Of a DNA stretch of 64,000 nucleotides, positions 13,380-47,509 are shown in pieces; position 1 is the stretch's first letter, and each line of letters opens with the position of its first letter. Made by a program: the position numbers and the translations under genes. The stretch is from contig CAWJWJ010000002.1 of the NCBI GenBank assembly GCA_963846575.1, forward strand, positions 2,400,001 through 2,464,000. Reading direction: 5' to 3'. This DNA is from an uncultured Nitrospiraceae bacterium (GTDB lineage: Bacteria > Nitrospirota > Nitrospiria > Nitrospirales > Nitrospiraceae). The notes under the pieces were generated by a model, which saw nothing but the letters and a program-made list of their open reading frames with translations, was not told the origin of the DNA and ran no database searches.

Positions 13380-13866
13380 TGGTCCTCGGGAACTCGAGGG
13401 ACTTCTATTTAATTCCGAGCCCCGATCCCATGGTCGACGTGCGCACTCCGAGGACGGGGCGTCACGCCTGAAGTGCGTGGACGAGCTTACAAGAATGGTG
13501 CAGCGGCGCCTGGGATCGCGGCGCGTATCTCGGAGCGGTGCCTGTCGCGTCCGCTTCCCGGGGAGTCCGTGATCATGTCACTGCGTCGACAAGAGAGAAC
13601 CCCGCAGTCTATCCGCCCCTCGATCACCGCCAGTAACGTGAGCAACGCGAATGAATGGGGAGAAGCGGCATTCCGTCGTGTGACGGAATAGCCGTTTGGT
13701 CGGCAAGAGGCGTGACCTGCGAGGTTTCCAGGTCATAAAGAACGGAGAATTGAGAGGGTTTTGACGTGTATTGTGATGGTTCAGCGGAAGTCTGAACCGC
13801 CGATGTGAGAAATGTACTACGGACTCGTCGGTCCCGAACCGACTGCTCGCCAGGAGCCGCAATCCG

Positions 13867-13968
13867 TTAGCTGGTCAATCCCCAGGTGCTCCAGAGAGCG
13901 ACTGCGGCCACTGCCAACATGAACCACGCCAACTCACGATCTCCGATTTTCTTGATCATTCGTACCAT
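13867..13968 (-). CDS. 33-aa single-TM small protein (MVRMIKKIGDRELAWFMLAVAAVALWSTWGLTS), not in the ORF track
   Basis: AGGAGGTG Shine-Dalgarno directly before ATG; basic N-terminus then a hydrophobic helix; sigma54 promoter ~50 bp upstream. Confidence 0.72.
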   Translation of the reverse strand: MVRMIKKIGDRELAWFMLAVAAVALWSTWGLTS

Positions 13969-14017
13969 GAGTCACCTCCTCCCATCCCGCTGTTTGCACG
14001 ACGATACCTGCTGTATT

Positions 14018-14033
14018 AGCAAGGCACATGCCA
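14018..14033 (-). promoter_or_regulatory. Sigma54 -24/-12 promoter of the 33-aa ORF
   Basis: TGGCATGTGCCTTGCT, close to consensus TGGCAC-N5-TTGCW. Confidence 0.8.
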
Positions 14034-14086
14034 TTGCCATTAGGCTGGAATTCAGTCTTTTTCGCTGATGAGCGAGCGGAAATCGA

Positions 14087-14117
14087 GCGGATTCGCACGC
14101 CTCGCACTGTGCGAATC
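14087..14117. promoter_or_regulatory. Candidate upstream activator site
   Basis: GATTCGCAC-N10-GTGCGAATC inverted repeat; closely resembles 27974-28001. Confidence 0.55.
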
Positions 14118-14198: not shown

Positions 14199-14855
14199 TC
14201 AGGAGGCTATTTCGGCATCACGTCCAAGCAACCTCTTTTTCGGATTGCTGATGGCTCTGGTGAGATACACAGCAAGGATCACTCCAAGGCTTTCCAGAAA
14301 CAGCAGTTGCCACCGGGCCCGCTGCAGCCACGACTCATAGGTCACGGCTTCCAGCGGCACTTCCCGCTGAATCCGCACCTCAAACTCCCCGATGGCCTTT
14401 TCGACGGTCAGGAACAACGCGCGGCCATTCCCCGCTCGCACATATAAGCGGACCTGCTCCTGCTTTTCCGTCCCGACCGCCGCCACCAGCGCTCTCTTGC
14501 TCGCGATAAACTCCTTGAGACGAGCCGCAAGCACTCCTAATCCCGCTCGCAGGCCGGGAGTCGTCGCGGTCAGATCCGCCAGCTTGGCCATTCCGGCATC
14601 CAGACGACTCTCAGCCAGGTTGATCGGTTCGAGAAAGGATTGTTGCTCCGTGAGGAGATATCCACGAAAGTTCGTCTCCACGTCCATCACCAGACGCTGG
14701 AGACGCAACACCTCCTCAAGAATTTTTGAACGGTGGAGTTGCCGCTCCTGCTGCGCGCGCCATTGATCGAAGAGAAACAGGTGCCCGAAGAAGGAGAGGG
14801 CCAGCGCGGCCGTAACGACGAGGAAGAGTCCGATGAACCGGCCACGTATGTCCAT
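14199..14855 (-). CDS. Stand-alone CHASE3 sensor-domain membrane protein
   Basis: TM-CHASE3 (DVETNFRGYLLTEQQSFLEP)-TM with only a short cytoplasmic tail. Confidence 0.8.
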   Translation of the reverse strand: MDIRGRFIGLFLVVTAALALSFFGHLFLFDQWRAQQERQLHRSKILEEVLRLQRLVMDVETNFRGYLLTEQQSFLEPINLAESRLDAGMAKLADLTATTPGLRAGLGVLAARLKEFIASKRALVAAVGTEKQEQVRLYVRAGNGRALFLTVEKAIGEFEVRIQREVPLEAVTYESWLQRARWQLLFLESLGVILAVYLTRAISNPKKRLLGRDAEIAS

Positions 14856-15079
14856 GATTGCGTGCGATGCTTTCCAGTCTACTCGACGACGTGAAGGCAA
14901 CGCGCCCTATCAATTTAACCGGCGCCTTTCGCGAAGTCCTCACGTGCGGAGGCTGCGGAGGCCTACGAGACCGCGTCATCGAGCAGCGATAGTATCCCCT
15001 GAGACCGGCCGCTACGAGCGATCGGTTTCTTCAATCGCCTACAGCACGATTCAGGCCACAGGATGAGGATGTGGTGAGG

Positions 15080-15121: not shown

Positions 15122-16411
15122 TTACAGCCAGTTCACGCGCTCGGCCGGCCGAATGTAGATCGGCTCTTCGACCTGCAGCCGCACCACTTCCTTGCCCGAC
15201 TTGTTGAAGCCCAACACCGTATCGTTGTACATCTCGAACCGCTTCCCGTGGATTTGGGTTTCAAACACTTTCGGACCCGGAATGACGTCGTACCGGAAGA
15301 CGATCTGCTGGCTGGCTCGCCAGAGCTGGAGCACCGCCAACAGTTCCCGGCTCGGCACGAGATACTTCTCAATCGCGTTGTCCACCCCCGGCCCGAACAT
15401 CTGCCGCGCATAGCCCCGCGGGCTGTGCCGCGGCGGAATGTAGAAGCCGTTGGGCTCCGTGCCCCATTGCGGATACAGCGGCAGCGCCACCTGCTCCACC
15501 CGAATGGCGTAGTACAGCGGATGCCAGCGATCTTCCGCCCACAGCCCGTCGTCGCCGATGCGCACCAGGCCCTGCAGCCGGATCTTGCCGACGCACGCCG
15601 CCATACACCGCGTTTCCATCGGCTCGCCGCCCGTCAGCGGGTCCTTGCCCTCGATCCGCGGATAGCAGGCAATACACTTCTCCGATACCCGCGTCGTGCC
15701 CCGGTACATCGGCTTCTTATACGGGCATTGCTCCACACACTTCTTGTACCCCCGGCAGCGGTTCTGGTCGATCAACACGATCCCGTCTTCCGGCCGCTTG
15801 TAGATGGCCTTCCGCGGACAGGCCGCCAGACAGCCCGGATAGGTGCAGTGGTTACAGATGCGTTGCAGATAGAAGAAGTACGTTTCATGCTCCGGCAAGC
15901 TGCTGCCGTGATCCTCCACGGTTCGTCCCGGCTAAAGCCGGTCTTGTCGATGCCCTCCACGATCGCCCGCATCGAGGTCGCCGTGTCTTCATAAATGTTC
16001 ACAAACCGCCATTCCTGGTCCGTCGGAATGTAGCCGATCGCCGCCTGGCCGACCTTGGCCCCCGCGTCGAAGATCGTCATCCCTTCGAACACCCCATACG
16101 GCGCATGGTGCTTGCGGCCCACCCGCACGTTCCACACCTGGCCGCCCGGATTCACTTGCTCGATCGAGCTGGGTGATCTTCACGTCGTAGAACTGCGGAT
16201 AGCCGCCGTACGGCTTGGTCTCCACGTTGTTCCACCACATGTATTCCTGCCCCTTCGAGAAGAGCCAGGTCGACTTGTCCGCCATCGAGCAGGTTTGACA
16301 CGCCAAACACCGGTTGATGTTGAAGACAAAGGCAAACTGCCACTTCGGATGCCGCTCCTCATACGGATACAGCATCTTCCGTCCTAGCTGCCAGTTATAG
16401 ACTTCAGGCAT
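15122..16411 (-). CDS. nxrB: Nitrite oxidoreductase beta subunit, copy 1; two frameshifts (+1 near 16164, -1 near 15908), likely sequence errors
   Basis: Three overlapping ORFs rebuild a protein nearly identical to 47510-48799 over the same 1290-nt span; Fe-S motifs CLACQTC, CNHCTYPGC, CIAC. Confidence 0.93.
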
Positions 16412-16454
16412 TGACTCTCTCCTTTCAGTCGCGAGTCGTCCCCGTCGGTCGACG

Positions 16455-16496
16455 TTCGTGAAGCGTTCGAGCTACCCTCCTCTTACGCTTCACGAA
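16455..16496. repeat. Inverted repeat in the nxrA-nxrB spacer
   Basis: TTCGTGAAGCGT-N18-ACGCTTCACGAA, perfect 12-bp arms. Confidence 0.75.
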
Positions 16497-16520
16497 GGAC
16501 GTTTCACGCGTCACATGGTC

Positions 16521-19500
16521 TTAGACTTTGATCTTGATATGTTCACCCTTGAGCCACTTGATCATGAACTCATTTTCCTGACCCGGCGTGAAACCGGTCC
16601 GGACCGGTTCCCACGGCCCACGCGCTCCGATGCCGCCGTCTTCCGCCTTGGTGATGCGGATCAGACATTCTTTCGGCACCGTGTTGACGGCATGGTGATC
16701 AATCTCAAAGCCCCATTTGAACTTCCATGCTATTGGCTTGCTTCCCGGGAAGCGAGTCGGTTTGGTGCATCGGCATGAGCCAACTGCTGGTAAATGACTG
16801 CTGCGCGCCATACCGGAAGTTCGACTGATAGCCGGTGTCCACCGCAATGGCGCGTCCGTCCGGCCGCGTCTCATGCCCCTTGACCGACTTCGGCGTCGAC
16901 ACATAGGGCGCATGCTTGGCCATCGTCACGTGGTACGGATACGCCGGGTTGTACTTCGCCCGGATCATCAGCCGCGCCACCTTGTAGTACGGGTCGGACG
17001 GCTTCCAGCCCCGATAGGGCCGGTCCACCGGGTTACCGTCCACGAAACAGTAGTCCCCGTCGTTGATGCCCCGGTCTTTCGCCGCCTGCGGGTTGATGTG
17101 GATCTGATGCTCGCCGACCCCCGGCGTCCGTTTGTCCATCCGGTAGGGATCGCCGAAGTTCGACTCGTAAATCTGCACCCAGTCGTTCACCGACCATTGG
17201 CTATGCACCCGGTGCCGGGTCTTCGGCGTCACGCAGTAGAACTGGTACCCCTTCTCCCACAACGGATTCGAACTCTGCTTGATTTCCTGCCACGGCAGCT
17301 TGATGTTGCGCACCGTCTTGTCGTCATGGTGCTGTGCCGTGATCGGAATCCCATAGTCCTCCGGCCGCACGTAGGGATTGGTCGTCATGATCGCATTCGG
17401 CAGATACGGGGTCGCCTCCGGCCCTTCCCGGTGCGAGATGAAGTTCTCCCCGTACTCGATCGCTTCCGGCTCGACACGGTAGGTCTCCAGCCGGCCCGAT
17501 CGCGTCCAATGCGGCTTCGACTCGTTGGTTTCTTCCCAGAGCGGATGCCGCGGATAGGTCCGGCACATCACCATCCAGCCCTTTTCCGACTTGAGCATCA
17601 CGTCGGCGCTGTAGCCGAAGAACGTGCTCGATGCATCGAGAATCCGTTGCACGTAAATGTCCACACGGTTCTCATACACGAACTTGTAGGTATCAGTCAT
17701 GCGTTGCTCACCGGTCATCTCCTTCAGTTTCACCGCCACACCGGCAAAACTATCGAGATCGTTTCTGGTGTCATACAACGGCCGGATGCCGCCCTTCCAG
17801 ATCTGCACCCACGGGTTTGACACGGTGGCCGTCATTTCCGGATAGGTGAACTCCATCCACGAATTCACCGCAAACGCCACGTCCGCATGGTTGACGTCCG
17901 AGGTCATCTCGATGTCCTGCGTGACCAGCATCTCGATGTTCGGATCGACGTTTTTGACCATGTCGTAGTGATGCTTGGCATTGTTGAGAATATTGACGTT
18001 CACGACCCAACGGATTTTGCTCGGGCTCGGCATGTGCGTCTTGCCGGTGAACACCTTGCGTCCGTACTTCGGCGTATTGACGATCAAGGCCTTGTCGCCG
18101 TGATTCCAATAGCCCGGCTCCTCGCCGTAGTAGTACTTGCGATACTTGATTTCCTTGCCGTGGACATTCTGATTGAGGTTCAGATTCCAGGGATCTTCGC
18201 CGAGATACACGCTGGCGCCCGCACCAGACCAGGGCGCCGCCTGCCAGATGCCGACCTTGTAATTCCCGGACCAGGTATGGCACCCGGTGCCGAATTTCCC
18301 GATATTGCCCGTCAGCATCATCACCAAGGCCGCCGCTCGTCCCATCGACGTCATATGGAAATAGTGACAGACACCTTCGCCGTTATGAATGGCCGCCGGC
18401 TTCACCGTGCCACAATCCCGCGCCCATCGCACGATGAGGTCTTTCGGCGCGCGGTTGACCTGATGCACCGTGTCGAGGTCGTAGTCCTGCAGGTGAATCG
18501 TATACATTTGATAAATCGGCATCACGTCGACTTCACGTCCGTTGAGCAGTTTCACCCGATAGGTGCCGGTCAGGGCCGGATCGATCCCGCTCTGGGCCAT
18601 GTGATAGCCGACTTGCTCCCGATGCAGCGGAACGGCATGCCCCTTGGCCAGATCCCAGACCATCATGCCCCCGAGCCGCTGGATGTTCTCCTTGCTCAGT
18701 CCCTGCACCCTGCCCGAATAGGATTTTGAGAAATCGGGCAAGTGATAGTCCTTCACTACCTCGTGCGGATCGAGATACTGCAAGGTATCCGTCCGGACCA
18801 GCAGAGGCATGTCGGTAAATTCCTTAATGAAATTGATATCCTGGAAATTCTCATCGAGGAGAATCTTACAGGCGCCGAGAAACAGCGCTCCGTCCGTCTC
18901 GGGGCGAACCGGAATCCAATAGTCGGCCCGGCTGGCCGTGGGATTGTATTCCGGGGTGATCACGACGAGCCGCGCCCCGCGTTCCATGCTCTCCAGTTTC
19001 CAGTGCGCTTCCGGCATTTTGTTTTCGACGAAGTTTTTGCCCCAACTGGTGTTGAGCTTCGTGAAGCGCATGTCGGAGAGGTCGACGTCGCAGTTCTGCG
19101 TCCCGTTCCACCAGGGCTGAGAAGGGTCTTGATCGCCGTGCCACGTATAGTTGTTCCAATACCGGCCGCCTTGCGCCTGATCCGGACTGACTTTGCGGAT
19201 CCAGCTATCCAACAGGGGCAGCACACAATTGTTGAATCGGGTATTGGCGTGCTTGCCCATCATCCCGAGGATCGGCATGCCCGCGCGATGCTTGAACGTC
19301 CGCACGCCCGCGCCCTTCATCATCTCGATCATTTCCGGAGCATACCCCTGCTCGCGGAGACGACGCGCGCCGGCTTCGCCGCTATAACGGGTCCCGATCA
19401 CGACCAGCCCTTTGGCCACGTAAGTAAAGGCCGTGTCCCAGGACACCCGGACCATATCGTCCAGGAACCGGGCGTCGAATTTGTACTTCCGTTTGTTGTC

Positions 19501-19962
19501 CGACGTCAGTTCCGGAGAGCCGTCATCCATCCACTGCTTCCAGCCTTTGCGCATCAACGGACCCTTCAACCGGTAGGGACCGTACACGCGCCGGTGGAAC
19601 GTGAAGCCCTTCAGGCACATACGAGGGTTATGGGCGAACGAGCCCCGGTTGCCGTAGAGGTCTTCATAAGTTTGGTGGTCATAGTTCTGCTCGACGCGCA
19701 TGACGACGCCGTTCCGGACGAACGCCCGGATGCGGCAGGCATGCGTATCGTTCGGTGAGCAGACCCAGGTGAAGGATGAGTCATACCGATATTGATCGTG
19801 ATAGACACGCTCCCACGACCGGTCGGGATATTCGCCTAACGGATTGTCGACCTCGACGACGGGCTGCAACGCGGTCAGTGCCAAGGCCCTGTCGGCAATG
19901 GCTGCCACCGCGACCGTCCCCGCCGAGACCTTTAAAAACTGCCTGCGGGATAACTGCATCAT
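16521..19962 (-). CDS. nxrA: Nitrite oxidoreductase alpha subunit (Mo-bisPGD), copy 1; one +1 frameshift near 16732
   Basis: Tat motif SRRQFLK, CSPNDTHAC FS0 motif, TWHGDQ. The C-terminus (WKFKWG...HIKIKV) lies in the neighbouring frame. Confidence 0.95.
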
Positions 19963-20415: not shown

Positions 20416-21936
20416 CTACCGACGGGAAGGACGACAAATACCGAGCTTGTGCAATTTGCTGCGAAGCGTACTTGGCGCCAGCCCCAATCGCTCCGCCGCA
20501 CCTCCGGACCCTTCGACTCGCCACTCGAGTAACGTCAGCGTCTGAAGGATGTGCCGGCGCTCTTCGTCTTGCAACGTGCGTCGGGGCGTTGAATCGGCAA
20601 CCGGGCGCATATTCATCAGGGCGGGATCGATCCGTAACATCGGCTCATGGCACAGGATCAGTCCCCGCTCAATGATGTTCTCCAATTCCCGCACGTTGCC
20701 AGGCCAGGCATAGCGCACCAGTCGCTCCATCGTCGGCCCATCAAAGTCCTGACACGACCGTTTGAGACGCTGGGCATGAAACCGGAGAAAATGACGGGCG
20801 AGAATCGGGATGTCTTCGGGTCGCTCCCTGAGTGGAGGCATATGGATGGGAAACACATTCAGCCGATAGTACAAATCGCTGCGGAACCGCCCCTGCTCGA
20901 TAGCCGTATGCAAATTGGCGTTGGTCGCGGCGATGACACGGACGTCGACGGGAACGGCCTTCGCCCCGCCGACCCTGTCGACCAGGCCGTCCTGCAGCAC
21001 GCGCAGAAGTTTGACCTGCGCATCAAGCGGCATCTCGCCGATCTCATCGAGAAACAAGGTCCCGCCGTCGGCAAGTTCGAATCGTCCGACACGTTGCTGA
21101 TCGGCTCCGGTAAACGCTCCCCGCTCGTGGCCGAACAGTTCGCTTTCAATCAACCCGGATGGAAGCGCCGCGCAATTGAGCCGGACGAAGGCCCGGTCCC
21201 GCCGCAGGCTCCGCTCATGAATGGCACGGGCCAGCACCTCCTTGCCCGTCCCCGTTTCCCCCGTCACCAGGACGGTCGCCGTGGTCGGAGCCGCCTGCCT
21301 GGCGAGGGTCAGCACTTGCTCGAAGGCCTGGCTCCGTCCTACGACGATCCCATGATCCTGCGTGGCCTTGAGTTCCTCCGCCAGATACACGTTCTCCTGC
21401 GCCAATTGGTCACGCAGGCGGTTGATCTCCTCATAGGCATTGACGTGGGCAATGGCAAAACCGATCTGCGTGGCGACCTGCTGAAGAAAATCCACATCGC
21501 CCGGATCGGGATGACCGGCTTCGATGCTGCCGATATTTAAGGTTCCGAGGCACGCCTCCTGAACCATCATCGGCAAGTTGATCATCCGCCCCAGTCCCTC
21601 TTGCAAGTAACAGTGATCTTCGACGAACAGTTGTTCCTTTTGAAGATGGGGCCGCACATGAACCCGCTGGTGGTCGTACACCCAGCCCACCGCACTGCGC
21701 TCCCGAGGGATCATGGCGTCGCTGCGCAGCACGACTTTCGGCAGATTGGTCTCGACCGCATAGAAACGAAACGCGTCCGATTGCAGATCGTAAACGGTGA
21801 TCCCCGCCCGTTCCCAACGAACCACCTTTGCCAACTGATCGGTGACGGCACGAAACAGGCTGTGCCGGTTGCGCTGGGAATTCAGCACGTTGGTGACTGA
21901 CAGCAGGGTGCGATAATTGAGGTCGACGTTTTGCAC
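20416..21936 (-). CDS. GAF-domain sigma54 enhancer-binding protein (FhlA/NifA-like)
   Basis: N-terminal [35 protein letters not shown]-terminal HTH. Confidence 0.92.
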
Positions 21937-22213: not shown

Positions 22214-23761
22214 TTAATGCCGGCCGGTGCCCGGTGTGCGGCGACCCTCATCGATTCCCGGACCGGAGCGACGGCGGGAAAAGCTGCGTCCCGCTTCAGG
22301 GCCCAGCGACTCCGACCCGGGGCCGATCGACGGGTTGAGGGGGCGCGTCGTCAATCCCAGGTCAGGACTCCTTCGTGGAACGAACGAACCCGGCATGCGA
22401 TCCTGCCGCTCTCGGGTCCGGTCGACGTGCGGCGAGCTTCGCCTTCCGGAAGGTGGTCCGGCAGCCCCCTTCTTCGGAACGGCCTGCTCCATGTCTTCCT
22501 CGTCTTCAAGAAAGGAATCGATCGGTTCCTCAGCCCCGTTGACCGCCAGGTTCGTCGCCATGACTTCCTTCGCCATGGACTCCGCCATAGGCAACTCATC
22601 GGCATAGACGTCGGTCTCATATTCCGCCGTGGAGGGGGTGGCGAGCGAGGTCCAGACGGATTGCCCGGACTCGGTGATATTGATGCTCGTCACGGTCGAC
22701 AGGCCGGGCCTGATGGGGTGTTCCCGCAGTTCATCGGCCGGTAATGCGATACGCACCGGCACGCGCTCGACGATATGAATGAAGTTGCCCGTGGAATTGT
22801 CCGGGGGAAGAAGGGCAAAGGCGCTCCCACTCCCCGGCACGAGCCCCTCGACGGTGCCATGGAAGGTTTGTTTGGATCCGTACAGGCTCACGTTCACCAA
22901 CGCCGGCTGCCCGGGACGCACATGTTGGAGTTCGGTTTCGCGCAGGTTGGCTTCGACCCACAAATGATCCAGCGGCACGATCGTCATCAGGAGGGCGCCG
23001 GGCTGGACGCGATCTCCCACTTGCGCCTTGCGTTTGGCGACATAGCCGGAAATCGGAGCACGGATTTGTTGCCTCGCATATTCCAGGTGCGCCTCAATCA
23101 GCTGATGTTTGGCCAAATCGACGGCCGGATGTTCCCTGACCGTCGTCCCCCCGATCTGCGCGTCGAGCGAGTCCAACTCCGCCTGCGTCTCCCGCACTTC
23201 CGCTTCCAGACTCGCAATCTTATCCGCCGTGTTCTGCAGAATCTGTTTGGAAATCGCCCCGCTCGGAGACGCCTGCCGGTACCGCTCCATGTCATGATCG
23301 GCCAGCTCCAATCGCGCCGTGCGCGATCGTAACTTTTCCCCCAATTGCTTCCGATTGATAAACAGTGAGGCGATACGACGGACTTCCTCTCCCAATCGCC
23401 CCCTCGCCCGACCCAGGGCGGCATAGGCCTGGTGCTCATCAAGGCGAATCATCAGATCGCCCCGATTCACGAATTGTGTCTCTTCCGCCAGGACCTGCGT
23501 AATGATGCCCGAGGCCTGCGCCGCCACCGGGACAAGGTTGCCGGTGACATAGGCGTTATCGGTCCGTATCCAAAACCGGTCGTGGGTCCACCAGTAGATG
23601 AGATATCCGACAGTGGCCATCAGCACCAGCCCGGCCACCATCAGCAGGCGTCGGTTGCGGCGCGCACGAATGGCCTTCGGATGGATGCGGTAGGAGGTTG
23701 GCGGCGGAGTCCCACCCGGGGACTGAGGACCAGAGGACATATCTGCAGTTGTCGTCGTCAT
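22214..23761 (-). CDS. emrA: EmrA/HlyD-family periplasmic adaptor with a long C-terminal tail
   Basis: TDNAYVTGN, WVEANLRETEL, FALLPPDNSTGNFIHIVERVPVRI. Confidence 0.88.
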   Translation of the reverse strand: MTTTTADMSSGPQSPGGTPPPTSYRIHPKAIRARRNRRLLMVAGLVLMATVGYLIYWWTHDRFWIRTDNAYVTGNLVPVAAQASGIITQVLAEETQFVNRGDLMIRLDEHQAYAALGRARGRLGEEVRRIASLFINRKQLGEKLRSRTARLELADHDMERYRQASPSGAISKQILQNTADKIASLEAEVRETQAELDSLDAQIGGTTVREHPAVDLAKHQLIEAHLEYARQQIRAPISGYVAKRKAQVGDRVQPGALLMTIVPLDHLWVEANLRETELQHVRPGQPALVNVSLYGSKQTFHGTVEGLVPGSGSAFALLPPDNSTGNFIHIVERVPVRIALPADELREHPIRPGLSTVTSINITESGQSVWTSLATPSTAEYETDVYADELPMAESMAKEVMATNLAVNGAEEPIDSFLEDEEDMEQAVPKKGAAGPPSGRRSSPHVDRTRERQDRMPGSFVPRRSPDLGLTTRPLNPSIGPGSESLGPEAGRSFSRRRSGPGIDEGRRTPGTGRH

Positions 23762-23765
23762 TGAT

Positions 23766-25274
23766 TTAGCTCGGATTTTGTTTCGGTCGTTTTTCAATAT
23801 CGGGATTGTGATAACCGCCGCCCAACGATTCGATCAGATCGACGGCCGCCACGAGTTGATCGCTCTCCAATGCTCTCAACGCATATTCCTGCTCCAGGAC
23901 CGGATATCGGTGCCGCAACACCTCGCGGTCATCGTCGAGACCGTTTACGAGTCGTATCTTCGCCAGCCGCCAGTCATCCCCGAGAGACGCCACCAGCCGT
24001 TTGTGCGAGGCCATGATCTCGCTGGTCGTTTGCCAGGCGCTCAAGCTATCGGCAACTTCCCGCATAGCGTCCAACAAGGTCTCGTTGTATAGTTCCACCG
24101 CCGCATCATATTCCGCCCGTTGCGCGCCCAGTTCCCCCCGCAGCCGTCCGCCCTCGAACCAAGGCATCCGTAAACCGGGCGCCAGTCCATAGCTGAAGCT
24201 TTGGCCGCTGAAGAGAAAATTGGCGAGCTTGTCGGTGCCCTTCGCCAGCGTCAACGCATTGAATCCCACAAACCCCGTCAGGTCGATCGTGGGATAGAAC
24301 TGAGTGGTCGCCACCCTGACCATTCGCGAGGCGGCGTGAGCCCGATAGAGGGCCGCCGCCAGGTCCGGCCGATGGACCAGCAGGCTCATCGACAAATGAT
24401 CCGGTGCCGCAATGTGACTGGGCACTATCACCTTCGGCCTGGCAAACAGATGCGCCGCTTCGTCAGGCCCCCTGCCGGCCAACCGCGCCAGCAAATGCCG
24501 CTGCACATCCAGCTGATCGCGGATTGCCGCCTGCCGCTTGAACGCCGCTTCATAGTCGGCCACCGCCATTTTCACCGGTTGATCATTGTCCAGGCCGAGC
24601 CGGAATCGGGTTTCCGCCAGGGTTTTGAGATCACGACGAATACCGACAATGGTTTTCACAATGGTGAGTTGCTGCTGAAGAGCCTGTCCCCGGAAGTAGG
24701 CGCGCGCAATGCCGGTCGTCAACCGTAACCGCACTTCGGCAGTTTCCGCCTCCTCTGCCGCCGCATGCCCCAGGGATGCCTCCAGCATCGCCCGGTTCTT
24801 TCCCCAAAAATCGAACTCATACCGGAAGCTCAACGGGTTGATGATCCCATACATGATCCGGATGCCCGCCACTTCCGGATTGAGGGCGGCAAACACGCCG
24901 CGTTGCGAGATGCGCTCATAGGTCAATGAGGCATCGGCTTCCAGAAACGGCAGGAGCCGCGCGCCTTCTACCTTCACGAGCGATTGCGCCTGCCGCAGCC
25001 TGGCGGAGGCCATCTTCAACCCGGGGTTGTCCTTGAGCGCCTGGTCGATCAGTCCATTCAATTCCGGATTACCGAACTGTTCCCACCACCGGTCCTCCGG
25101 CCACTTCTGGAGCCGGCTCGTCACTTCCGCTAACGTTTCCGTCATCTCCGGCGGTTCGAGATACTGCGCGGGTGGATCACCCTTCGGAATCCAGGCACAG
25201 CTGGCGAAGCTGAGCGCGCAGCCGATACCGACACAGAGTTGCAACCGGTGCGCGGCCGTTGAACGCGAACTCAT
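23766..25274 (-). CDS. NodT/TolC-family outer membrane efflux lipoprotein
   Basis: Lipobox-like FASC, WWEQFGNPELNGLI, RPDL, SLGGG. Confidence 0.9.
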   Translation of the reverse strand: MSSRSTAAHRLQLCVGIGCALSFASCAWIPKGDPPAQYLEPPEMTETLAEVTSRLQKWPEDRWWEQFGNPELNGLIDQALKDNPGLKMASARLRQAQSLVKVEGARLLPFLEADASLTYERISQRGVFAALNPEVAGIRIMYGIINPLSFRYEFDFWGKNRAMLEASLGHAAAEEAETAEVRLRLTTGIARAYFRGQALQQQLTIVKTIVGIRRDLKTLAETRFRLGLDNDQPVKMAVADYEAAFKRQAAIRDQLDVQRHLLARLAGRGPDEAAHLFARPKVIVPSHIAAPDHLSMSLLVHRPDLAAALYRAHAASRMVRVATTQFYPTIDLTGFVGFNALTLAKGTDKLANFLFSGQSFSYGLAPGLRMPWFEGGRLRGELGAQRAEYDAAVELYNETLLDAMREVADSLSAWQTTSEIMASHKRLVASLGDDWRLAKIRLVNGLDDDREVLRHRYPVLEQEYALRALESDQLVAAVDLIESLGGGYHNPDIEKRPKQNPS

Positions 25275-26869
25275 GGCACCTCCTCAATTAATTCTTCGGC
25301 ACGCCGGCGCCGCAAATCCTCGGCCTGGGTCGGCGCCAAGCGCAAGTGCGTCGGGTGAGCGAACCACACGAGAATTCCCAGTGCCACAAACATGAAGCTG
25401 GCCACAAGAAACGCATCGTTGAGGCCCAGGATTGCCGCTTCCTGCCTGATCAGGAGTGCGAGTTTGCCCTGGACTTCCGCCGGCGACAGCCCCGCAGCGC
25501 CCAATTTTGCCGACAATTGCGCCATCGGATCGAAGGATATCGACTGCCGTCCCCCGAAATGATCGGCTAAATGAAGTTGATGGAAGTGGGTGCGGCGAAA
25601 CAGGACGATCCCCTGGAACGTGATCCCGAACGCGCCGGCGGCCACGCGTAACAGGTTGGCGACCTCCGCCGCCCGCATGACCAACGGACCGGACAGGCCA
25701 TGCAAGGTCAACACGGTCACCGGCGTAAAGAAGGATCCCAGGAACACCCCCTCCACCACCATCGGCCAGAACAGTTGCTCATAGGACTGAGGATCGTCGT
25801 ACAGACCCAACCAATAGAAAGTCCAGGCAAATCCCAGACTGTTCAAACAGATCAACCAGCGGGCATCGATATATTTGCAGAGCGAATGCATGACTGCGAT
25901 GGCCGGTGCGCCCAGCAAGACCAGGGGGAGCAACGCCATCCCCGCCAGTTTCGATGAGTAGCCCAGAATGAGTTGAATCTGCACGATCAAGAGTGACAAC
26001 AGCCCTTGGATCGAAAAAAATCCGAGGGTCAGGCTGATCAGGCCGATCACAAAATTGCGATGCATGAAGAGTCGCAAGTCGAGTGTCGGATGGCGCTCTC
26101 CCAGTTCCCAAATAACGAAACAGGGAAAGGCAATCACCAGGACCACTGCAATGACCTGAAGCAAGGGGGAGTCCAGCCAGTCGAAATCGTTGCCCATGTT
26201 GAGCAACGTTTGAAGGCCCAGGAGCAAACCAGCCAGCAGCACAAACCCGACCAGATCAAAACGGGCGTACCGGCGGTGAAAGCCCCGGCCGTACAACAGG
26301 GCCCCGAGCGTCCCGACAATCACGAGGGTCAGCACAAAATCCAGGTAGAAGAGAAACCTCCATCCCAGCACATAGGCGATGTACCCCCCCACCGGCATGC
26401 CGATGGTGAAGGGGGTAATGCTGAACAATCCCCAGACCGTCAGCGCGACCGCCTTCAACCGTTTCGGGTATTCGTTGAGTAACATCGATTGGGCCAGCGG
26501 CAGGGTAATGCCCCCGGCAATGCCCTGCACGATCCGCGCTGGCACGAACTGGGCGAGCGTCTGACTGTCGCCGCAGAGAAAGGAGGCCACGCTGTAGACC
26601 CCGAACGCCGCGATCAAGAGACGGTAGTCGCCGATCCGGCCCGACAAGTATCGCGCGAGGGGAAAACCCAGGGCCAACCCGACCATAAAGTCGGTTTGCG
26701 CCCAGGTGAGAAAACTCGGCAGCACGCCGCCCAGATCTCCCGACACGTGTGGCAGCAGCGCGATATAGGACCCGGCGTTGAACAGCACGACGATGTGCGC
26801 CAAGCCGAGTACGGCATTGAAGAGCACGAATCGCCAGCCATGTAATCGCCGGAAATACACAGTCGCCAT
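25271..26869 (-). CDS. emrB: DHA2/EmrB-type MFS efflux permease
   Basis: Multi-TM protein; ARIVQGIAGG, WRFLF, DLRLF; located next to emrA and tolC-type genes. Confidence 0.85.
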   Translation of the reverse strand: MATVYFRRLHGWRFVLFNAVLGLAHIVVLFNAGSYIALLPHVSGDLGGVLPSFLTWAQTDFMVGLALGFPLARYLSGRIGDYRLLIAAFGVYSVASFLCGDSQTLAQFVPARIVQGIAGGITLPLAQSMLLNEYPKRLKAVALTVWGLFSITPFTIGMPVGGYIAYVLGWRFLFYLDFVLTLVIVGTLGALLYGRGFHRRYARFDLVGFVLLAGLLLGLQTLLNMGNDFDWLDSPLLQVIAVVLVIAFPCFVIWELGERHPTLDLRLFMHRNFVIGLISLTLGFFSIQGLLSLLIVQIQLILGYSSKLAGMALLPLVLLGAPAIAVMHSLCKYIDARWLICLNSLGFAWTFYWLGLYDDPQSYEQLFWPMVVEGVFLGSFFTPVTVLTLHGLSGPLVMRAAEVANLLRVAAGAFGITFQGIVLFRRTHFHQLHLADHFGGRQSISFDPMAQLSAKLGAAGLSPAEVQGKLALLIRQEAAILGLNDAFLVASFMFVALGILVWFAHPTHLRLAPTQAEDLRRRRAEELIEEVP

Positions 26870-26885: not shown

Positions 26886-27767
26886 TCAATACGACGGAGA
26901 GTAGCCCGGGTGGTCGGCCCGGGACTGCCCCGGTTCAGCTTGGACTGCCGCCTGGGCGGATGGCCCCGAGGACGCCGTGGCGCCGCTATGGGCGGCGTAA
27001 ATCGCCAATCCCGTAAACACCATACCCCCGACCAGATTTCCCGCCGTCACGGGAATCTGGTTCCACAGCCACCAGGTCGAGACGCTCACATTCGCCCCCA
27101 GGATCATCCCGACGGGAATGAGAAACATGTTTACGACCGCATGTTCGAAGCCCTGAGAAAAGAACAACAGGGTCGGACCCCAGATGGCGAGAATCTTTCC
27201 GGAAAAGGACGTGGACATAAAGGCTGCCACGACCGCCAGGCTGACCATCCAGTTACACAGCATGCCCTTGGTGAAGGCGGCCAGAAGCCCGGACGTGCCG
27301 TGGGAGGCATAGTAGTTGGTTTTTGCTTCGGCGATCGTGATGAGTTTGGTACCGACGGCATTGAGCTGGGCGTCTCCCGCAGTCGTCAGGGCAATCGCAA
27401 ACAACCCCGCGTAGAGCGTGCTGCCCAACAGATTGCCCAGGAACACCCAGCCCCAGTTTGAGAAGACGTGGCGAAGACCGGCGTTCTTGTGGCCGGCGAC
27501 GGCCGCGCAGGGCAGGAGTGCAAAGCTGCCGGTGATGATCTCCGCCCCGAGCAGAATAGCCAGTGCCAGGCCGAACGGAAAGAGGAGACTCCCGAGGATC
27601 CAGTACCCCGTTTCAACTGCCACCGTCACGGCCATGCTCGTCCCGATGCCCAGATAGGCGCCGGCCAGCATACCGCGCAGGAGCAGTTGTCGAGGCGGCA
27701 ACCTCAGTTTCAACGCTCCGCTGGCCAGCATACTATCCACTACACCGTGTGGCTTCACATAGTCCAT
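26886..27767 (-). CDS. Formate/nitrite transporter (FNT) family channel
   Basis: GNLLG, KGMLCNWMV, GFEHAVVNMF, GNLVGG. Confidence 0.92.
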   Translation of the reverse strand: MDYVKPHGVVDSMLASGALKLRLPPRQLLLRGMLAGAYLGIGTSMAVTVAVETGYWILGSLLFPFGLALAILLGAEIITGSFALLPCAAVAGHKNAGLRHVFSNWGWVFLGNLLGSTLYAGLFAIALTTAGDAQLNAVGTKLITIAEAKTNYYASHGTSGLLAAFTKGMLCNWMVSLAVVAAFMSTSFSGKILAIWGPTLLFFSQGFEHAVVNMFLIPVGMILGANVSVSTWWLWNQIPVTAGNLVGGMVFTGLAIYAAHSGATASSGPSAQAAVQAEPGQSRADHPGYSPSY

Positions 27768-27848: not shown

Positions 27849-27864
27849 AGCAATCCACATGCCT
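27849..27864 (-). promoter_or_regulatory. Sigma54 promoter of the FNT-emr operon
   Basis: AGGCATGTGGATTGCT (GG-N10-GC, TTGCT). Confidence 0.75.
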
Positions 27865-27973
27865 CCGGTCATTCACAGTTCGGTCCGCGTCGAGTTTTGT
27901 CGTGGCGCTGCCATCGAGTGTCCCAGAGCGACCATACTAATCAAGCTAGGGTTTCTTCCAGGGGGGAAATAGG

Positions 27974-28001
27974 GCGGGATCGCACTCGCGCACGGTGCGA
28001 A
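27974..28001. promoter_or_regulatory. Candidate upstream activator site
   Basis: GCGGGATCGCACTCGCGCACGGTGCGAA, similar to 14087-14115. Confidence 0.55.
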
Positions 28002-28164
28002 ATCGCTCGAAAACAGAATACACCTGGAGGATAAGCGGGATACGCATGCGTTGGGATCCCCTCCGGGAGGTCCGACTCAGCCCGGCTCCAGCACTCGCCT
28101 CTGTCAACCAGGTTGCACAACGACGGCGCCGAAGACTACGATACTCTCGGAGACTAAAGGCCCC

Positions 28165-30120
28165 GTGAGCGACCTCCTAAGCAATTTACCCATCGCGCGT
28201 AAGCTGTTTCTTGCGTCGGTTATTCCTGCCCTGACAGTCCTTATCCTCAGTATATTGACCTACCGAAGCGTCGAGACATTTTCCGACGACGAAGGGCAAT
28301 TGAACGACATCTATTATTCCCAGCGGCTGGCCTCCGAATACCTCCGGCTTATCGTGGATCTCGAAACCGGATTCAGAGGCTTCGTATTGACGAACCAGGA
28401 ACACTATCTGTTTCCCTATCGAACCGCCCAAGATCACGTCTTGAACCTGGGCCGGACGCTGGAAGCGAAAGTCTATCAATATGATGACCAGCGGGCGCTG
28501 ATTGACTCCATCCAGAAATTGGTCAGACAGTTTATCGAGGAAAAGGAACAGCTGATCGAGGCGGTGAAAGCCGACCACACGAACGAGGCGCGACTCTATA
28601 TCGAGGAAGGCAAGGGGCGGGCGTTAATGCTGAAAATCCGCCAGGAGATGGGCCAGTTCGAGCATCTGGCGCAAGCCGCCCTGAACAACCGGCTGGTGAA
28701 ACTCGCTCAGGACCGCGACACCATGCTGATGACCATCTTGGGGGGCGGCCTCTTCGCGTTGATCTGTATGGTGGGAGTGCTGCACCTCATTGCCCACTCC
28801 ATCACCACGCCAATCGAACGGTTGGCCAAAGCCGTCGTCGCATCCGATAGTAATCCGGTTCCTCAAGTCCCCATTCTACCGGGCACGGATGAGATCGGAA
28901 ATCTCTCCCGGGTGATGCACGCCATGAGTTCGGCCATTCATTCCCACATTGCGACGGTCGAAGAATCGGAAGCGAACTTACGGCAATTGAACCAGGACCT
29001 GGCGGCATCGGAAGGTAAATATCGCAGTATCGTCGATCATGCGCCCTTCGGCATTTTTACCACGCGCGGCATGACCCTCGTCTTCAGCAACCGGTACAAC
29101 AGCACGCTCGCGGGACTCGACCCCAGGGAAGAGAAGAATCCGGACGCCGTCCGGCACGCCATTCACCCGGATGACCGGGAACGGGTCATCATGGAATTTT
29201 CCGAGGCAGTGGCCGAAGGGCGGCCGTACGAAACCGTCTTCCGGTTTCTCCATGCGGACGGGACCGTCCGTAAAGTCCTGAGCCGCCGCATCCCGATTCG
29301 AGACCAGGCCGGGCAAGTGGTGATGTATCAAGGATTCAATGTGGATATCACCGCGCTCGACCTGATGCAAACGCGCCTGCGCCGGGCGGAACGCCTCGCC
29401 ACCCTGGGACAGGTCGCCGCGGGCATCGCGCATGAAATCAGAAATCCGCTCGTCGGCATCGGCTCGACCACGTCGCTGCTGCTGGACGACATCGACCCCG
29501 GTGACGGGCGCCGCGCCGATCTGGAGGTCATTCTTCAGGAGACCAAACGTCTGGACCGTATCGTGAATCAAATCATCGACTATGCCCGTCCTCGTGAAAT
29601 CGTGGCGCTCGGTTTCGACATGGTACAGCTTGTGCACGAGGTTACGAAGCTCCTGGATGAACCGCTCGTGCGCAAGCAATCGACTATCCGCCTCTCTGCG
29701 CCGGCCGGTGCCTACACCGTTCAAGCAGACCGTGATCAATTGAAACAAGTGCTGCTCAATATTATTCAAAATGCGATCGAAGCCACTCCGCCGGGACATC
29801 CCATTACCGTGTCCCTGGCTCAGCTCGCGCACGGAGTCGAGTCAGGATTGGAGATTGTCGTTACCGACAGAGGCAGCGGAATCAGCCCTGCCCACCTGCC
29901 GCATGTGTTCGAGCCGTTCTTCACCAGCGGCAAACCGAGGGGCACGGGCCTGGGACTGGCGATTTGCAGAAACATTCTCGATGCGCACGGCGGAGACATG
30001 ACCCTGGAAAGCCGGTTAGGCGGCGGCACGACCGTTCGCATCTGGTGCCCGTTACGCCAACAGCCACAGCGAATGCAGGAAGAGGATACCCATGCGGGCC
30101 ACGATTTACGTCACGGATGA
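28165..30120 (+). CDS. CHASE3-HAMP-PAS sensor histidine kinase (NtrB-like)
   Basis: DLETGFRGF, AHEIRNPL H-box, QVLLNIIQNA, GTGLGL. Confidence 0.92.
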   Translation: MSDLLSNLPIARKLFLASVIPALTVLILSILTYRSVETFSDDEGQLNDIYYSQRLASEYLRLIVDLETGFRGFVLTNQEHYLFPYRTAQDHVLNLGRTLEAKVYQYDDQRALIDSIQKLVRQFIEEKEQLIEAVKADHTNEARLYIEEGKGRALMLKIRQEMGQFEHLAQAALNNRLVKLAQDRDTMLMTILGGGLFALICMVGVLHLIAHSITTPIERLAKAVVASDSNPVPQVPILPGTDEIGNLSRVMHAMSSAIHSHIATVEESEANLRQLNQDLAASEGKYRSIVDHAPFGIFTTRGMTLVFSNRYNSTLAGLDPREEKNPDAVRHAIHPDDRERVIMEFSEAVAEGRPYETVFRFLHADGTVRKVLSRRIPIRDQAGQVVMYQGFNVDITALDLMQTRLRRAERLATLGQVAAGIAHEIRNPLVGIGSTTSLLLDDIDPGDGRRADLEVILQETKRLDRIVNQIIDYARPREIVALGFDMVQLVHEVTKLLDEPLVRKQSTIRLSAPAGAYTVQADRDQLKQVLLNIIQNAIEATPPGHPITVSLAQLAHGVESGLEIVVTDRGSGISPAHLPHVFEPFFTSGKPRGTGLGLAICRNILDAHGGDMTLESRLGGGTTVRIWCPLRQQPQRMQEEDTHAGHDLRHG

Positions 30121-31483
30121 CGAACCAGCCATTCGCAGCGCCGTTGTGAAACGCCTCTCGCGGCGTCACCACACCGTCACCGGCTTCGAGTCGGGAGAGG
30201 ACCTCATCAGGGCTGTGTCGCAGCATCTGCCCGACCTGGTTCTGCTGGACCTCAAGATGCCGGGCATGGGAGGGCTTGAGACGCTCCGGCAACTCCGCCC
30301 CCTTGCCCCGCAGACGCTCATCATCATGCTGACCGCGTATGGCACGGTCGAGGATGCGGTCGAAGCGATGCGGCTGGGCGCCTATGACTTTTTGATCAAA
30401 TCGGTGGATTTGTCCGCCGTCGATCCCGTGGTCGATCGAGCCCTCGAGTTTCTCGCGCTTCGCCAGCGCCTGGAGTTCTCGCTTGAAGATCAAAACAGCC
30501 CTTACGCCCTCTCCAACGTCGATGCGCGCAGTCCCGCCATGCAATTGTTGTTAGGGCAGGTTCGAGACGTGGCGCAGAATGCCAAATCGAGCGTCCTCCT
30601 CCAGGGTGAAACCGGGACGGGCAAGGAATTCCTCGCACGCGTCATTCACTGCAACAGCCCGCGGGCCACGGGCCCCTTCGTCGCCGTCAATTGCACGGCC
30701 ATTCCCAAGGAGCTCTTCGAAAGCGAACTGTTCGGCTTCGAACGGGGTGCTTTTACCGGCGCGCACCAACGCAAACGAGGACTGTTGGAAAAAGCCGAGG
30801 GCGGCAGCCTGTTTCTCGACGAAATCGGCGACCTGGACCCTGTCATGCAAGCCAAACTACTCCGGGTCCTGCAGGAACGAACGTTCCGGCGCTTAGGGGG
30901 CATGGAAGACCTGTCAGTGGATTTCCGCTTGATGACCGCGACCAATCGGGACCTCAAGCGGGAGACGGCGCGGGGCACCTTTCGCGAGGATCTCTATTTC
31001 CGGCTCAACGTCGTCACGTTCGAACTTCCCCCGCTGCGGGTCCGCACCGAGGATGTCCTTCCCCTCTGCAGGCAGGCCCTGCTGCGATTCGGAAAAGAGT
31101 TCGGCAAGGAGGTGGTGGATATCGAACCCGAGGCGCAAGACCTCCTCCAACGCTACAGCTATCCCGGCAATATCCGCGAACTCCAAAACATCATCGAGCG
31201 CGCCATGATCCTCTGTCATGACAAGACTCTGACCGCCGGCTGCCTGCCGAAAGAACTGCGTGACCAGACTCCGCAAATCGCGGTCGCTACGGCCCAGGGC
31301 GACCACCCCGCGTTACGGATCGAGATGGTGCTCGGCCAGCAAACGCTGGCGGATATCGAGTCGGCCCTGATCGAGGAAGTCGTGCGTCTCTCGGACCACA
31401 ACAAGACTCTGGCAGCCAAACACCTCGGGCTGACACGATTCGCCCTGGATCGCCGCCTCAAAAAACAGATGGAACACGATTGA
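30092..31483 (+). CDS. Sigma54 response regulator (NtrC/AtoC type)
   Basis: Receiver (LLDLKMPG), [17 protein letters not shown]; overlaps the kinase gene. Confidence 0.93.
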   Translation: MRATIYVTDDEPAIRSAVVKRLSRRHHTVTGFESGEDLIRAVSQHLPDLVLLDLKMPGMGGLETLRQLRPLAPQTLIIMLTAYGTVEDAVEAMRLGAYDFLIKSVDLSAVDPVVDRALEFLALRQRLEFSLEDQNSPYALSNVDARSPAMQLLLGQVRDVAQNAKSSVLLQGETGTGKEFLARVIHCNSPRATGPFVAVNCTAIPKELFESELFGFERGAFTGAHQRKRGLLEKAEGGSLFLDEIGDLDPVMQAKLLRVLQERTFRRLGGMEDLSVDFRLMTATNRDLKRETARGTFREDLYFRLNVVTFELPPLRVRTEDVLPLCRQALLRFGKEFGKEVVDIEPEAQDLLQRYSYPGNIRELQNIIERAMILCHDKTLTAGCLPKELRDQTPQIAVATAQGDHPALRIEMVLGQQTLADIESALIEEVVRLSDHNKTLAAKHLGLTRFALDRRLKKQMEHD

Positions 31484-43781: not shown

Positions 43782-43956
43782 ATACTCCTACTACGCGAGC
43801 GAATGTCCGCTCACATTTTTCGAATTGCGAGTGACGAATGTTTCCAATTCGACACAAGGAAAGGAGGTGTACAGCTAGATTGCATCCGGAAAGCGCAGTG
43901 AAGGTGTACGAACAGGTGCATGAGGGACTCATGTGCCTCACAAGGAGGTAGCTATT

Positions 43957-46900: not shown

Positions 46901-47400
46901 GGCCCTATCGTGGCTGGAAGCCGTCGGACCCGTTCTACAAGGTCTCCCGGTTGATGATTCGTGCCAAGTACAATCCGGCCTATCCGTACCACGTCACGAT
47001 GGCAAAACATGCCCCGTATGTGGCAACGGCCAAGTCGGTGAAAGGCCACGAGACGCGGCCGGACGGACGCGCCATTGCGGTGGACACCGGCTATCAGTCC
47101 AACTTCCGGTACGGCGCACAACAGTCGTTTACCAGAAGCTGGTTGATGCCGATGCACCAAACCGACTCGCTCCCCGGCAAACATACGGTTGCCTGGAAGT
47201 TCAAGTGGGGCTATGCCATCGATCACCATGGCGTCAACACGACTCCGAAGGAGTGCCTGATCCGCATCACCAAGGCGGAAGACGGCGGCATCGGAGCCCG
47301 TGGGCCGTGGGAACCAGTCCGGACCGGTTTCACGCCGGGTCAGGAAAACGAGTTCATGATTAAGTGGCTCAAGGGGGAACATATCAAGATCAAGGTCTAG
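43957..47400 (+). CDS. nxrA: Nitrite oxidoreductase alpha subunit, copy 2 (intact)
   Basis: RBS AGGAGG; Tat SRRQFLK; CCSPNDTHGC; TWHGDQ. Confidence 0.97.
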   Translation: MQVSVSRRQFLKISAGTVAAVAVADKVLALTALQPVIEVGNPLGEYPDRSWERVYHDQYRYDSSFTWCCSPNDTHGCRIRAFVRNGVVMRVEQNYDHQTYEDLYGNRGTFAHNPRMCLKGFTFHRRVYGPYRLKGPLMRKGWKQWMDDGSPELTPDVKRKYKFDSRFLDDLNRVSWDTAFTYVAKGCVLIATRYSGEAGARRLREQGYAPEMIEMMKGAGVRTFKHRAGMPVLGIIGKMMNTRFNGGCLPLLDSWIRKVDADRAQGGKYYSNYTWHGDQDPSHPFWNGTQNCDIDLSDMRFSKLNTSWGKNFVENKMPEAHWKLESIERGARIVVITPEYNPTAYRADYWIPLRPETDGANFLGAAKIIFDENLQDIDYIKEFTDLPLLVRTDTLQYLDPRDVIADYKFPDFSKSYTGRIQSLKPEQIERLGGMMVWDLAKGKAVPLHREQVGFHFKESGIDPALTGTHRVKLLNGREIDVMSIYQMYQVHLQDYDLDTTHQITRAPKDLLVRWARDSGTIKPAAMHNGEGVCHYFHMTEMGRAAAFIMTITGNIGKFGTGCHTWSGNYKAGIWNAVPWSGAGLAVHTGEDPFNLTLDPNAHGKEIKTRSYYYGEEVGYWNHGDTALIVNTPKYGRKVFTGKTHMPSPSKVRWVTNVNILNNAKHHYDMVKNVDPNIEMIVTQDIEMTSDVNHADVAFACNSWMEFTYPEMTGTVSNPWIQIWKGGIRPLYDTRNDADTFAGVAAKLAEMTGDARFRGVFHFVYMNRVDVYPQRMLDASATCYGYSADVMLKSEKGWMVMGRTYPRHPLWEETNESKPQWTRSGRIETYRIEPEAIEYGENFIVHREGPECTPYLPNAIFSNNPFIRPDDYGIPITAQHHDDKHVRNIKLPWQEIKRHPNPLWEKGYQFYCVTPKTRHRVHSQWSVNDWVQIYESNFGDPYRMDKRTPGVGEHQLHINPQAAKDRGINDGDYVFVDGNPVDRPYRGWKPSDPFYKVSRLMIRAKYNPAYPYHVTMAKHAPYVATAKSVKGHETRPDGRAIAVDTGYQSNFRYGAQQSFTRSWLMPMHQTDSLPGKHTVAWKFKWGYAIDHHGVNTTPKECLIRITKAEDGGIGARGPWEPVRTGFTPGQENEFMIKWLKGEHIKIKV

Positions 47401-47415
47401 GGATCGATGGTCACG

Positions 47416-47437
47416 CCTAAGAGGACTGCCTCTTAGG
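47416..47437. repeat. Stem-loop in the nxrA-nxrB spacer
   Basis: CCTAAGAGG-ACTG-CCTCTTAGG. Confidence 0.7.
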
Positions 47438-47509
47438 GACGTCGTTCTCAGGACTTGAAACGAATGCGAACCATTAACCACATAATCATGTTCAGAAGGA
47501 GGATTCACA

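Follow-up and report, generated by a model that had tools for sequence, protein, structure and literature searches.

What does a 33-codon open reading frame (ORF) with its own sigma54 promoter do beside nxrAB, and where did it come from? We addressed this in the window, i.e., the whole stretch of 64,000 nucleotides analysed here, in the rest of its genome and in related genomes. The first-pass annotation had located a promoter, a Shine-Dalgarno sequence and the ORF on the minus strand and had read them as a regulated single-transmembrane (TM) microprotein. All three were found where it had placed them (Table 1), and this reading was supported. The promoter was kept in all 30 loci fetched, that of the window's own genome included. 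The predicted 33-residue product has a basic N-terminus, a G9-D10-R11-E12-x-x-W15 motif and one predicted TM helix, which coincides with a single hydrophobic stretch of 19 residues at 13-31 (mean KD 1.72). Four K/R residues precede this stretch and none follows it; only two residues come after it, and the protein has no cysteine. All 29 rows of the family profile likewise showed a single hydrophobic stretch, with K/R residues confined to the part preceding it, so that an N-in/C-out orientation is predicted. Only G9 and W15 were invariant, with D10 and A19 nearly so.

Codon-level comparison indicated that the 33-codon ORF is a real gene under purifying selection. It was recovered at E<1e-10 in 31 of 36 genomes of the same genus, and the ATG, the 33 codons, the stop and the sigma54 promoter were kept in 30/30 loci; the conservation of ORF and promoter that the first-pass annotation had proposed to check was thus confirmed. 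Across the 30 loci, mean pairwise differences at codon positions 1, 2 and 3 were 0.09, 0.04 and 0.39, respectively. The pN/pS ratio was 0.11 over all pairs, with synonymous divergence near 1 in the genus, and the corrected dN/dS over the 354 pairs not near saturation was 0.06. In four of the five other frames pN/pS was 1.7-5.6. The antisense frame that shares third positions was open in all 30 loci with a pN/pS of 0.29, as expected because its wobble positions are shared with the microprotein ORF. The distance from promoter to ATG ranged from 54 to 79 nt, and the spacer sequence diverged.

A search with the 29-row profile found the microprotein in 98 of the 371 genomes of the family, belonging to 11 of 39 genera, and ORF, promoter and upstream element were conserved jointly across 11 genera. 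The copies in relatives are annotated at NCBI only as hypothetical proteins of Nitrospira sp. No family in Pfam or NCBIfam matched the microprotein, the Atlas gave only nameless matches (<0.9), and no paralogue was found in its own genome. A profile search over 1.84 billion representatives returned 42 matches, comprising 41 family members and one repeat artefact. In small samples of sister-family genomes the microprotein was not found, neither in one set of five nor, at E<0.2, in one of 24. Members of 80-156 aa in one homologue cluster were considered as microprotein fusions and rejected as unrelated proteins. A leader-peptide or dual-function RNA reading was also dropped, because the 3' flank is unconserved and the single Rfam match at the locus is at chance level. 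Neither a sigma70 site nor a minus-strand terminator was found at the locus.

The -24 and -12 dinucleotides of the promoter are conserved at the canonical 10-nt distance, and the start site predicted from the -12 position lies near 14007. A search for the strict sigma54 pattern gave a single site in the window and, with both strands counted, 14 sites in the 4.2-Mb genome. At 80 bp above the promoter, a 29-bp element stands out as conserved amid divergent DNA; the first-pass annotation, correct on gene and promoter, had missed this putative enhancer as well as the regulon and the signal-peptide origin described below. The element was found in 70 of 76 distinct loci, and 66 of these 70 copies sit 78-83 nt from the promoter. 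In a held-out test, a matrix built from the window's genus alone scored 15 of 17 loci at 25-45 bits, the background maximum being 3.5. The usual distance of sigma54 enhancers, as given in PMC4987338, is 80-150 bp upstream; the position of the element fits this distance, consistent with a predicted upstream activating sequence (UAS).

Two side observations concern this region. Conserved T- and A-tracts lie between element and promoter (window about 14060-14075) and possibly form a DNA bend standing in for IHF. Three genomes of genus g39 (loci L069, L070 and L090) have the element inverted and further upstream, with no good sigma54 site after it, and their peptides have E12 changed to G.

Table 1. 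Positions of the microprotein gene, its control sequences and the genes of its predicted regulon in the window.
Feature	Position	Strand	Remark
Microprotein gene, 33 codons, ATG to TAA	13867..13968	minus	Basis: ORF check, homologue search, alignment, topology
Shine-Dalgarno sequence	13973..13980	minus	Purine-rich core conserved in alignment
Sigma54 -24/-12 promoter, 16 nt	14018..14033	minus	Pattern match; kept in 30/30 loci
29-bp element composed of pentamers, repeated and inverted; predicted UAS for a sigma54 activator	14085..14113	minus	Basis: conservation, held-out test
EmrA-like periplasmic adaptor	22214..23797	minus	Immediate upstream neighbour of the peptide in four other genera
Outer-membrane factor (OMF) of the pump	23766..25274	minus	
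EmrB-like DHA2 MFS transporter	25271..26869	minus	Second candidate target; co-inherited with the window's peptide class
Formate/nitrite transporter (FNT) family protein, first gene of the co-regulated operon	26886..27767	minus	
Sigma54-type promoter of the FNT-Emr operon	27849..27864	minus	Below the related element
Element related to the 29-bp one, spacer one base shorter	27970..28001	minus	27.5 bits; above the FNT-EmrB-OMF-EmrA operon
CHASE3-HAMP-PAS histidine kinase, probable start near 28162	28051..30120	plus	Presumed sensor of the regulon; leading candidate target
Sigma54-dependent response regulator, AtoC/NtrC/ZraR-like	30092..31483	plus	Presumed binder of the element

Further matches to the element outlined a predicted regulon, whose extent is that seen in the fetched loci and the window's own genome. 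The related element of Table 1 occupies the gap between fnt and the divergent kinase, and the corresponding background had a 99th percentile of 1.9 and a maximum of 19.4 bits. Among pump loci with the type I EmrB-like protein (see below), 15 of 16 had a forward element above fnt, at 21.6-42 bits; in type II loci the copy was weaker and inverted, or absent. The second-best match in the whole genome (18 bits, G000:C2:159043-159066) lies between an RND efflux operon and a ModA-like gene. Genes for RND efflux and a ModA-like binding protein also adjoin the peptide in many relatives.

The window encodes two activators of the sigma54 type, the response regulator of Table 1 and a GAF-domain activator (20416-21936). 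The GAF-domain activator is an alternative candidate for the element; however, it precedes nxrA, whose upstream region has no element. We take the response regulator as the predicted binder because it adjoins the sites and because in one genome, G094 (95% complete, 20 contigs), kinase and regulator orthologues were undetected and the element is gone, with peptide and promoter intact (L078). The assignment thus draws on position and co-loss. Kinase and regulator score best on the AtoS/ZraS and AtoC/NtrC/ZraR models, respectively, below the cut-offs. Taken together, it is probable that the CHASE3 kinase would phosphorylate the neighbouring sigma54 regulator, which would bind the 29-bp element and co-induce the peptide, the FNT-EmrB-OMF-EmrA operon and the RND/ModA-like locus.

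The proximity to nxrAB, which the first-pass annotation had singled out, did not prove to be a special link. No element was found upstream of either nxrA copy in the window's own genome, and in genera g12, g19, g40 and g41 the peptide comes directly after emrA, with no nxrAB between. Among the fetched loci, a block of activator and nxrAB after emrA was present only in g1 and g24. Since the other genera lack this block between emrA and the peptide, the link to nxrAB is positional and recent. Note that, compared with the intact copy at 43933-48799, the nxrAB copy at 15122-19962 (minus strand) carries three single-base indels; they lie near 16739, 16164 and 15910, interrupt nxrA close to its end and break nxrB into three pieces. 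The copy is mostly intact in relatives, and these indels are an assembly error or mark a pseudogene.

The origin of the peptide became apparent from longer ORFs. In six genomes (G083, G132, G133, G139, G271 and G317), the same peptide opens an ORF of 188-199 aa under the same element and promoter as the microprotein, and a seventh (G136) has a long ORF that starts with the peptide in degenerate form. The N-terminus of these long forms is built like a Sec signal peptide, with a basic n-region, a hydrophobic h-region, a c-region, small residues at -3/-1, a nearly invariant Ala32 and a predicted folded domain following, a call made by eye and alignment. The mature part has a predicted structure with a pLDDT of 86. 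Foldseek placed YjgB, BLIP-like proteins, BamE and OsmE at the top of its matches, PF04355 is listed on 2 of 51 long-form homologues, and the sequence had no match in the PDB. With a best E of 0.003 at 13% identity, the model thus resembles BLIP/BamE-type tandem domains at modest significance. The mature domain occurred in 17 of 371 genomes, but neither in the window's own genome nor in any of 38 of its genus.

About half of 47 aligned long-form homologues carry ordinary, variable signal peptides. Five of these plain-signal forms keep the same element (27-44 bits) and promoter, four of them within about 9 kb of the kinase, and because of this shared element, promoter and proximity we regard them as the same gene in an older state. 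In a tree of the mature domain, 20 motif-bearing rows fell in one clade of 22 (99/94), plain forms lying outside it and as outgroups; one sequence counted as motif-positive in this analysis, P0087, was wrongly labelled so, its match lying in the mature part. Two further motif rows stood at the unresolved base, with five label changes on the tree, and therefore one or two origins of the motif are possible. At 75-85% identity of the mature domain, signal-peptide identity was 54% for motif-bearing and 25% for plain forms (0.54 vs. 0.25), i.e., motif-bearing signal peptides are about twice as conserved at equal mature-domain divergence. Function has evidently moved into the peptide. In long forms such as P0087 and P0092, the start of the mature domain, immediately behind the cleavage site, resembles the peptide motif and the first TM residues. 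A short internal duplication may have given rise to the motif, a claim for which this likeness (profile alignment P 0.013, probability 3%) is too weak.

How the exported domain was lost can be seen in intermediate loci. In the scan of 89 loci, L071 showed the peptide closed by a stop and followed by a frameshifted remnant of the domain (E 8e-8), and P0123, among 42 representatives, showed the same (E 2e-8). The short classes differ in where they stop and in their nearest long form, to which most are 57-82% identical; the window's class is about 40% identical to its nearest long-form signal peptide. These differing ends and nearest long forms point to several independent losses, that of the window's class being old. 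Furthermore, of the long and the short copy in G136 (L097 and L117), only the short one has retained the invariant Trp, a pattern that looks like subfunctionalisation after duplication.

The existence of truly decayed intermediates, together with the variable stop positions, might suggest that the short ORFs are themselves nothing but functionless, decaying remnants of a secreted-protein gene. This is barely credible and is already largely refuted by the signal of selection: pN/pS was 0.06-0.40, i.e., <0.41, in all eight short classes tested, it was as low as 0.11 at the synonymous divergence of the window's genus, and enhancer, promoter and Shine-Dalgarno sequence were preserved as spacers diverged. 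A second possibility is the reverse direction of change, namely that a free peptide was fused onto a secreted domain. Fusion is possible; however, it leaves unexplained both the plain forms in the same cassette and the decayed remnants. The homology between microprotein and signal peptide is plain from the alignments, and from it and the intermediates we infer the direction. Very probably, then, the ancestral gene encoded a secreted two-domain protein, its signal peptide gained the G-D-R-E-x-x-W motif, and several losses of the exported domain followed, with the peptide remaining under selection. The microprotein is most likely an orphaned signal peptide.

What, then, would the free peptide act on? 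The first-pass annotation had named the CHASE3 kinase and the FNT/Emr pump as partners. Both survived the analysis as putative physical partners, and the FNT-Emr operon shares the element. Of the 98 peptide genomes, 89 had the kinase and 75 the EmrB-like pump, and 31 of the 41 tested for it had the RND adaptor; these counts are drawn from related, partly fragmented genomes and are non-independent. In G109, where the pump operon is gone, peptide and kinase are immediate divergent neighbours. As no single pump is required by the family, the kinase is favoured as the target, as with MgrB. Note that co-occurrence with the kinase is itself uninformative on the target, because the gene would need the kinase for its expression anyway. 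In addition, 105 of 194 kinase-bearing genomes had no detected peptide, 9 of 98 peptide genomes had no detected kinase (G094, with its intact peptide, among them), and the window's peptide class is scattered on the kinase tree, with six changes, at least four of them forced.

MgrB (47 aa), the feedback inhibitor of PhoQ, offers the closest model. According to two reports (10.1101/438515, PMC12648545), it is oriented N-in/C-out, relies on a TM tryptophan and on lysines in the cytoplasm, and is a member of its kinase's own regulon. The microprotein resembles it as a small single-TM protein with a basic cytoplasmic N-terminus, the same (predicted) orientation, conserved TM tryptophans and, within a predicted two-component regulon, a promoter of its own. 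However, MgrB also requires its periplasmic part and cysteines (10.1101/438515), and this argues against the kinase as target: MgrB has a periplasmic domain and a cysteine pair, whereas the microprotein has neither and is almost without a periplasmic part. It also differs in matching no family (Pfam, and no MgrB match in NCBIfam among 29 members), in its sigma54/enhancer control, in the CHASE3 type of the kinase it putatively binds, and in its traceable descent from a signal peptide. We tentatively propose that the free peptide would insert N-in/C-out into the inner membrane and bind the membrane region of the CHASE3 kinase, modulating by feedback the kinase that would switch it on, in the manner of MgrB and PhoQ. 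For the full explanation, a signal-peptide descendant in the inner membrane that damps its own CHASE3 kinase, we estimate a probability of about 0.4.

A different target, given the same gene, regulon and origin, would be the co-regulated EmrB-like (or RND) efflux pump, of which the peptide would be an accessory subunit tuning assembly or substrate range. AcrZ (49 aa), an accessory of AcrB, is likewise a small membrane protein co-regulated with an efflux pump, as described in PMC12648545. In support of such a role, the type I EmrB-like protein was found in 55 of the 60 genomes with the window's peptide class, and the class in 55 of 57 type I genomes. The 20 tested genomes of this class grouped as a single clade in the trees of both EmrB (support 100) and EmrA (96), and class-diagnostic residues numbered 37 in EmrB, 7 in EmrA and 0 in both FNT and OMF. 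The common element and the position directly after emrA in four genera point the same way. Nevertheless, block transfer of adjacent genes explains the matching trees equally well, and the peptide persists without the pump. Of 38 genomes with only a divergent peptide, 18 lacked an EmrB-like MFS protein, some of them 99-100% complete; the FNT orthologue was absent in 5/5 tested of these pump-less genomes; the RND adaptor was missing in 10 of 41 tested, closed genomes included; and the G-D-R-E-x-x-W motif was kept with or without a pump. AcrZ itself differs from the microprotein in that no family match links the two, and the pump tracked here is an EmrB-like MFS protein. The orientation of AcrZ is opposite to the predicted N-in/C-out. 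We thus regard a pump-accessory role as unlikely, if still a serious contender. As an observation on the pump itself, the EmrB-like protein comes in two types (74-93% and 55-67% identity), and most of the 37 substitutions diagnostic of type I lie in residues 54-333, which suggests a shift of substrate or partner.

Two further targets are compatible with the invariance or the origin of the peptide. Signal peptides already contact the translocon and signal peptidase, and the peptide descends from such a sequence; it might therefore act, under the stress to which the regulon responds, on a housekeeping membrane target such as Sec/YidC, signal peptidase or FtsH together with the island's SPFH protein. 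The motif does not vary with the partner, and one frequent neighbour is an SPFH/band-7 gene that carries the same element. The SPFH orthologue is, however, missing from the window's genome (best match 28%), and we consider this target improbable. Alternatively, the peptide may be the precursor of a released signal, cut in the membrane to a fragment that the CHASE3 domain would sense in an autoinduction loop. Enterococcal pheromones, which are derived from signal peptides, are a precedent, and the strong promoter of its own within the kinase's presumed regulon, the signal-peptide origin and the constant N-terminal motif with class-specific C-termini would suit such a loop. Signal and receptor should co-vary, though, and the peptide class does not follow the kinase tree; moreover, the predicted topology puts the conserved motif on the cytoplasmic side, and pheromone-type loops of signal peptides are known mainly from Gram-positive bacteria. 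A released signal is accordingly the least plausible of the targets weighed here, and very improbable.

Compared with known systems, the peptide likely works like MgrB or AcrZ, as a member of neither family. The ancestral long form is reminiscent of ZraP, the secreted periplasmic protein that the sigma54 two-component system ZraSR drives from its own promoter, as stated in PMC4987338, and kinase and regulator come closest to the AtoS/ZraS and AtoC/NtrC/ZraR models, if below the cut-offs. Unlike ZraP, the long form has a predicted BLIP/BamE-like fold, and most lineages kept the signal peptide only. Likeness to BLIP, BamE (SmpA_OmlA) and DUF4309 tandem-domain proteins, the top matches of the long-form model, is limited by the modest scores above and by the absence of the domain from 38/38 genomes of the window's genus. 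Enterococcal pheromones and the yeast K2 signal sequence are signal sequences with a function of their own, carried on living precursor genes; in contrast, the Nitrospira gene was cut down to its signal peptide in several lineages. Searches of open-access full text gave no description of the gene, of the regulon or of any bacterial microprotein that descends from a signal peptide. Small membrane proteins under regulation are a known kind of molecule, and it is the descent from a signal peptide, with surviving intermediates, that appears to be new.

That the signal peptide assumed the job of its protein in the membrane, that the exported domain was then dropped independently in at least four lineages, and that the peptide now feeds back on the CHASE3 kinase is, as one combined claim, possible rather than probable. 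If it holds, a CHASE3 kinase under peptide feedback would control nitrite-channel and efflux genes in nitrite oxidisers. The predicted sigma54 regulon, previously undescribed and with a precisely predicted enhancer, would connect a CHASE3 sensor with a formate/nitrite channel and with two efflux pumps in Nitrospira, which in soils and treatment plants are the main nitrite oxidisers. To the question of how small membrane proteins originate in bacteria, this family offers one route, the truncation of a secreted protein to its signal peptide, and the intermediates can be compared: living genomes still contain plain and motif-bearing signal peptides, the decaying domain, the free peptide and an apparently subfunctionalised duplicate. 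It also suggests a genome-wide search for further signal-peptide-derived microproteins.

Finally, several minor features were noted. In 23 of 32 loci of the window's genus, the peptide is immediately preceded by a gene for a TM-CHASE3-TM protein without kinase domains (14199-14900 in the window, minus strand); this protein is 33% identical to the sensor domain of the kinase and could be a decoy or co-sensor. A 122-bp stretch at 13505-13626 has an 87% identical copy at G000:C2:1265319-1265441 and no match in Rfam. Elsewhere in the genome, a second strict sigma54 site (G000:C1:1098696, minus strand) is followed by a Shine-Dalgarno sequence and a hydrophobic ORF of 41 codons, possibly a second microprotein.
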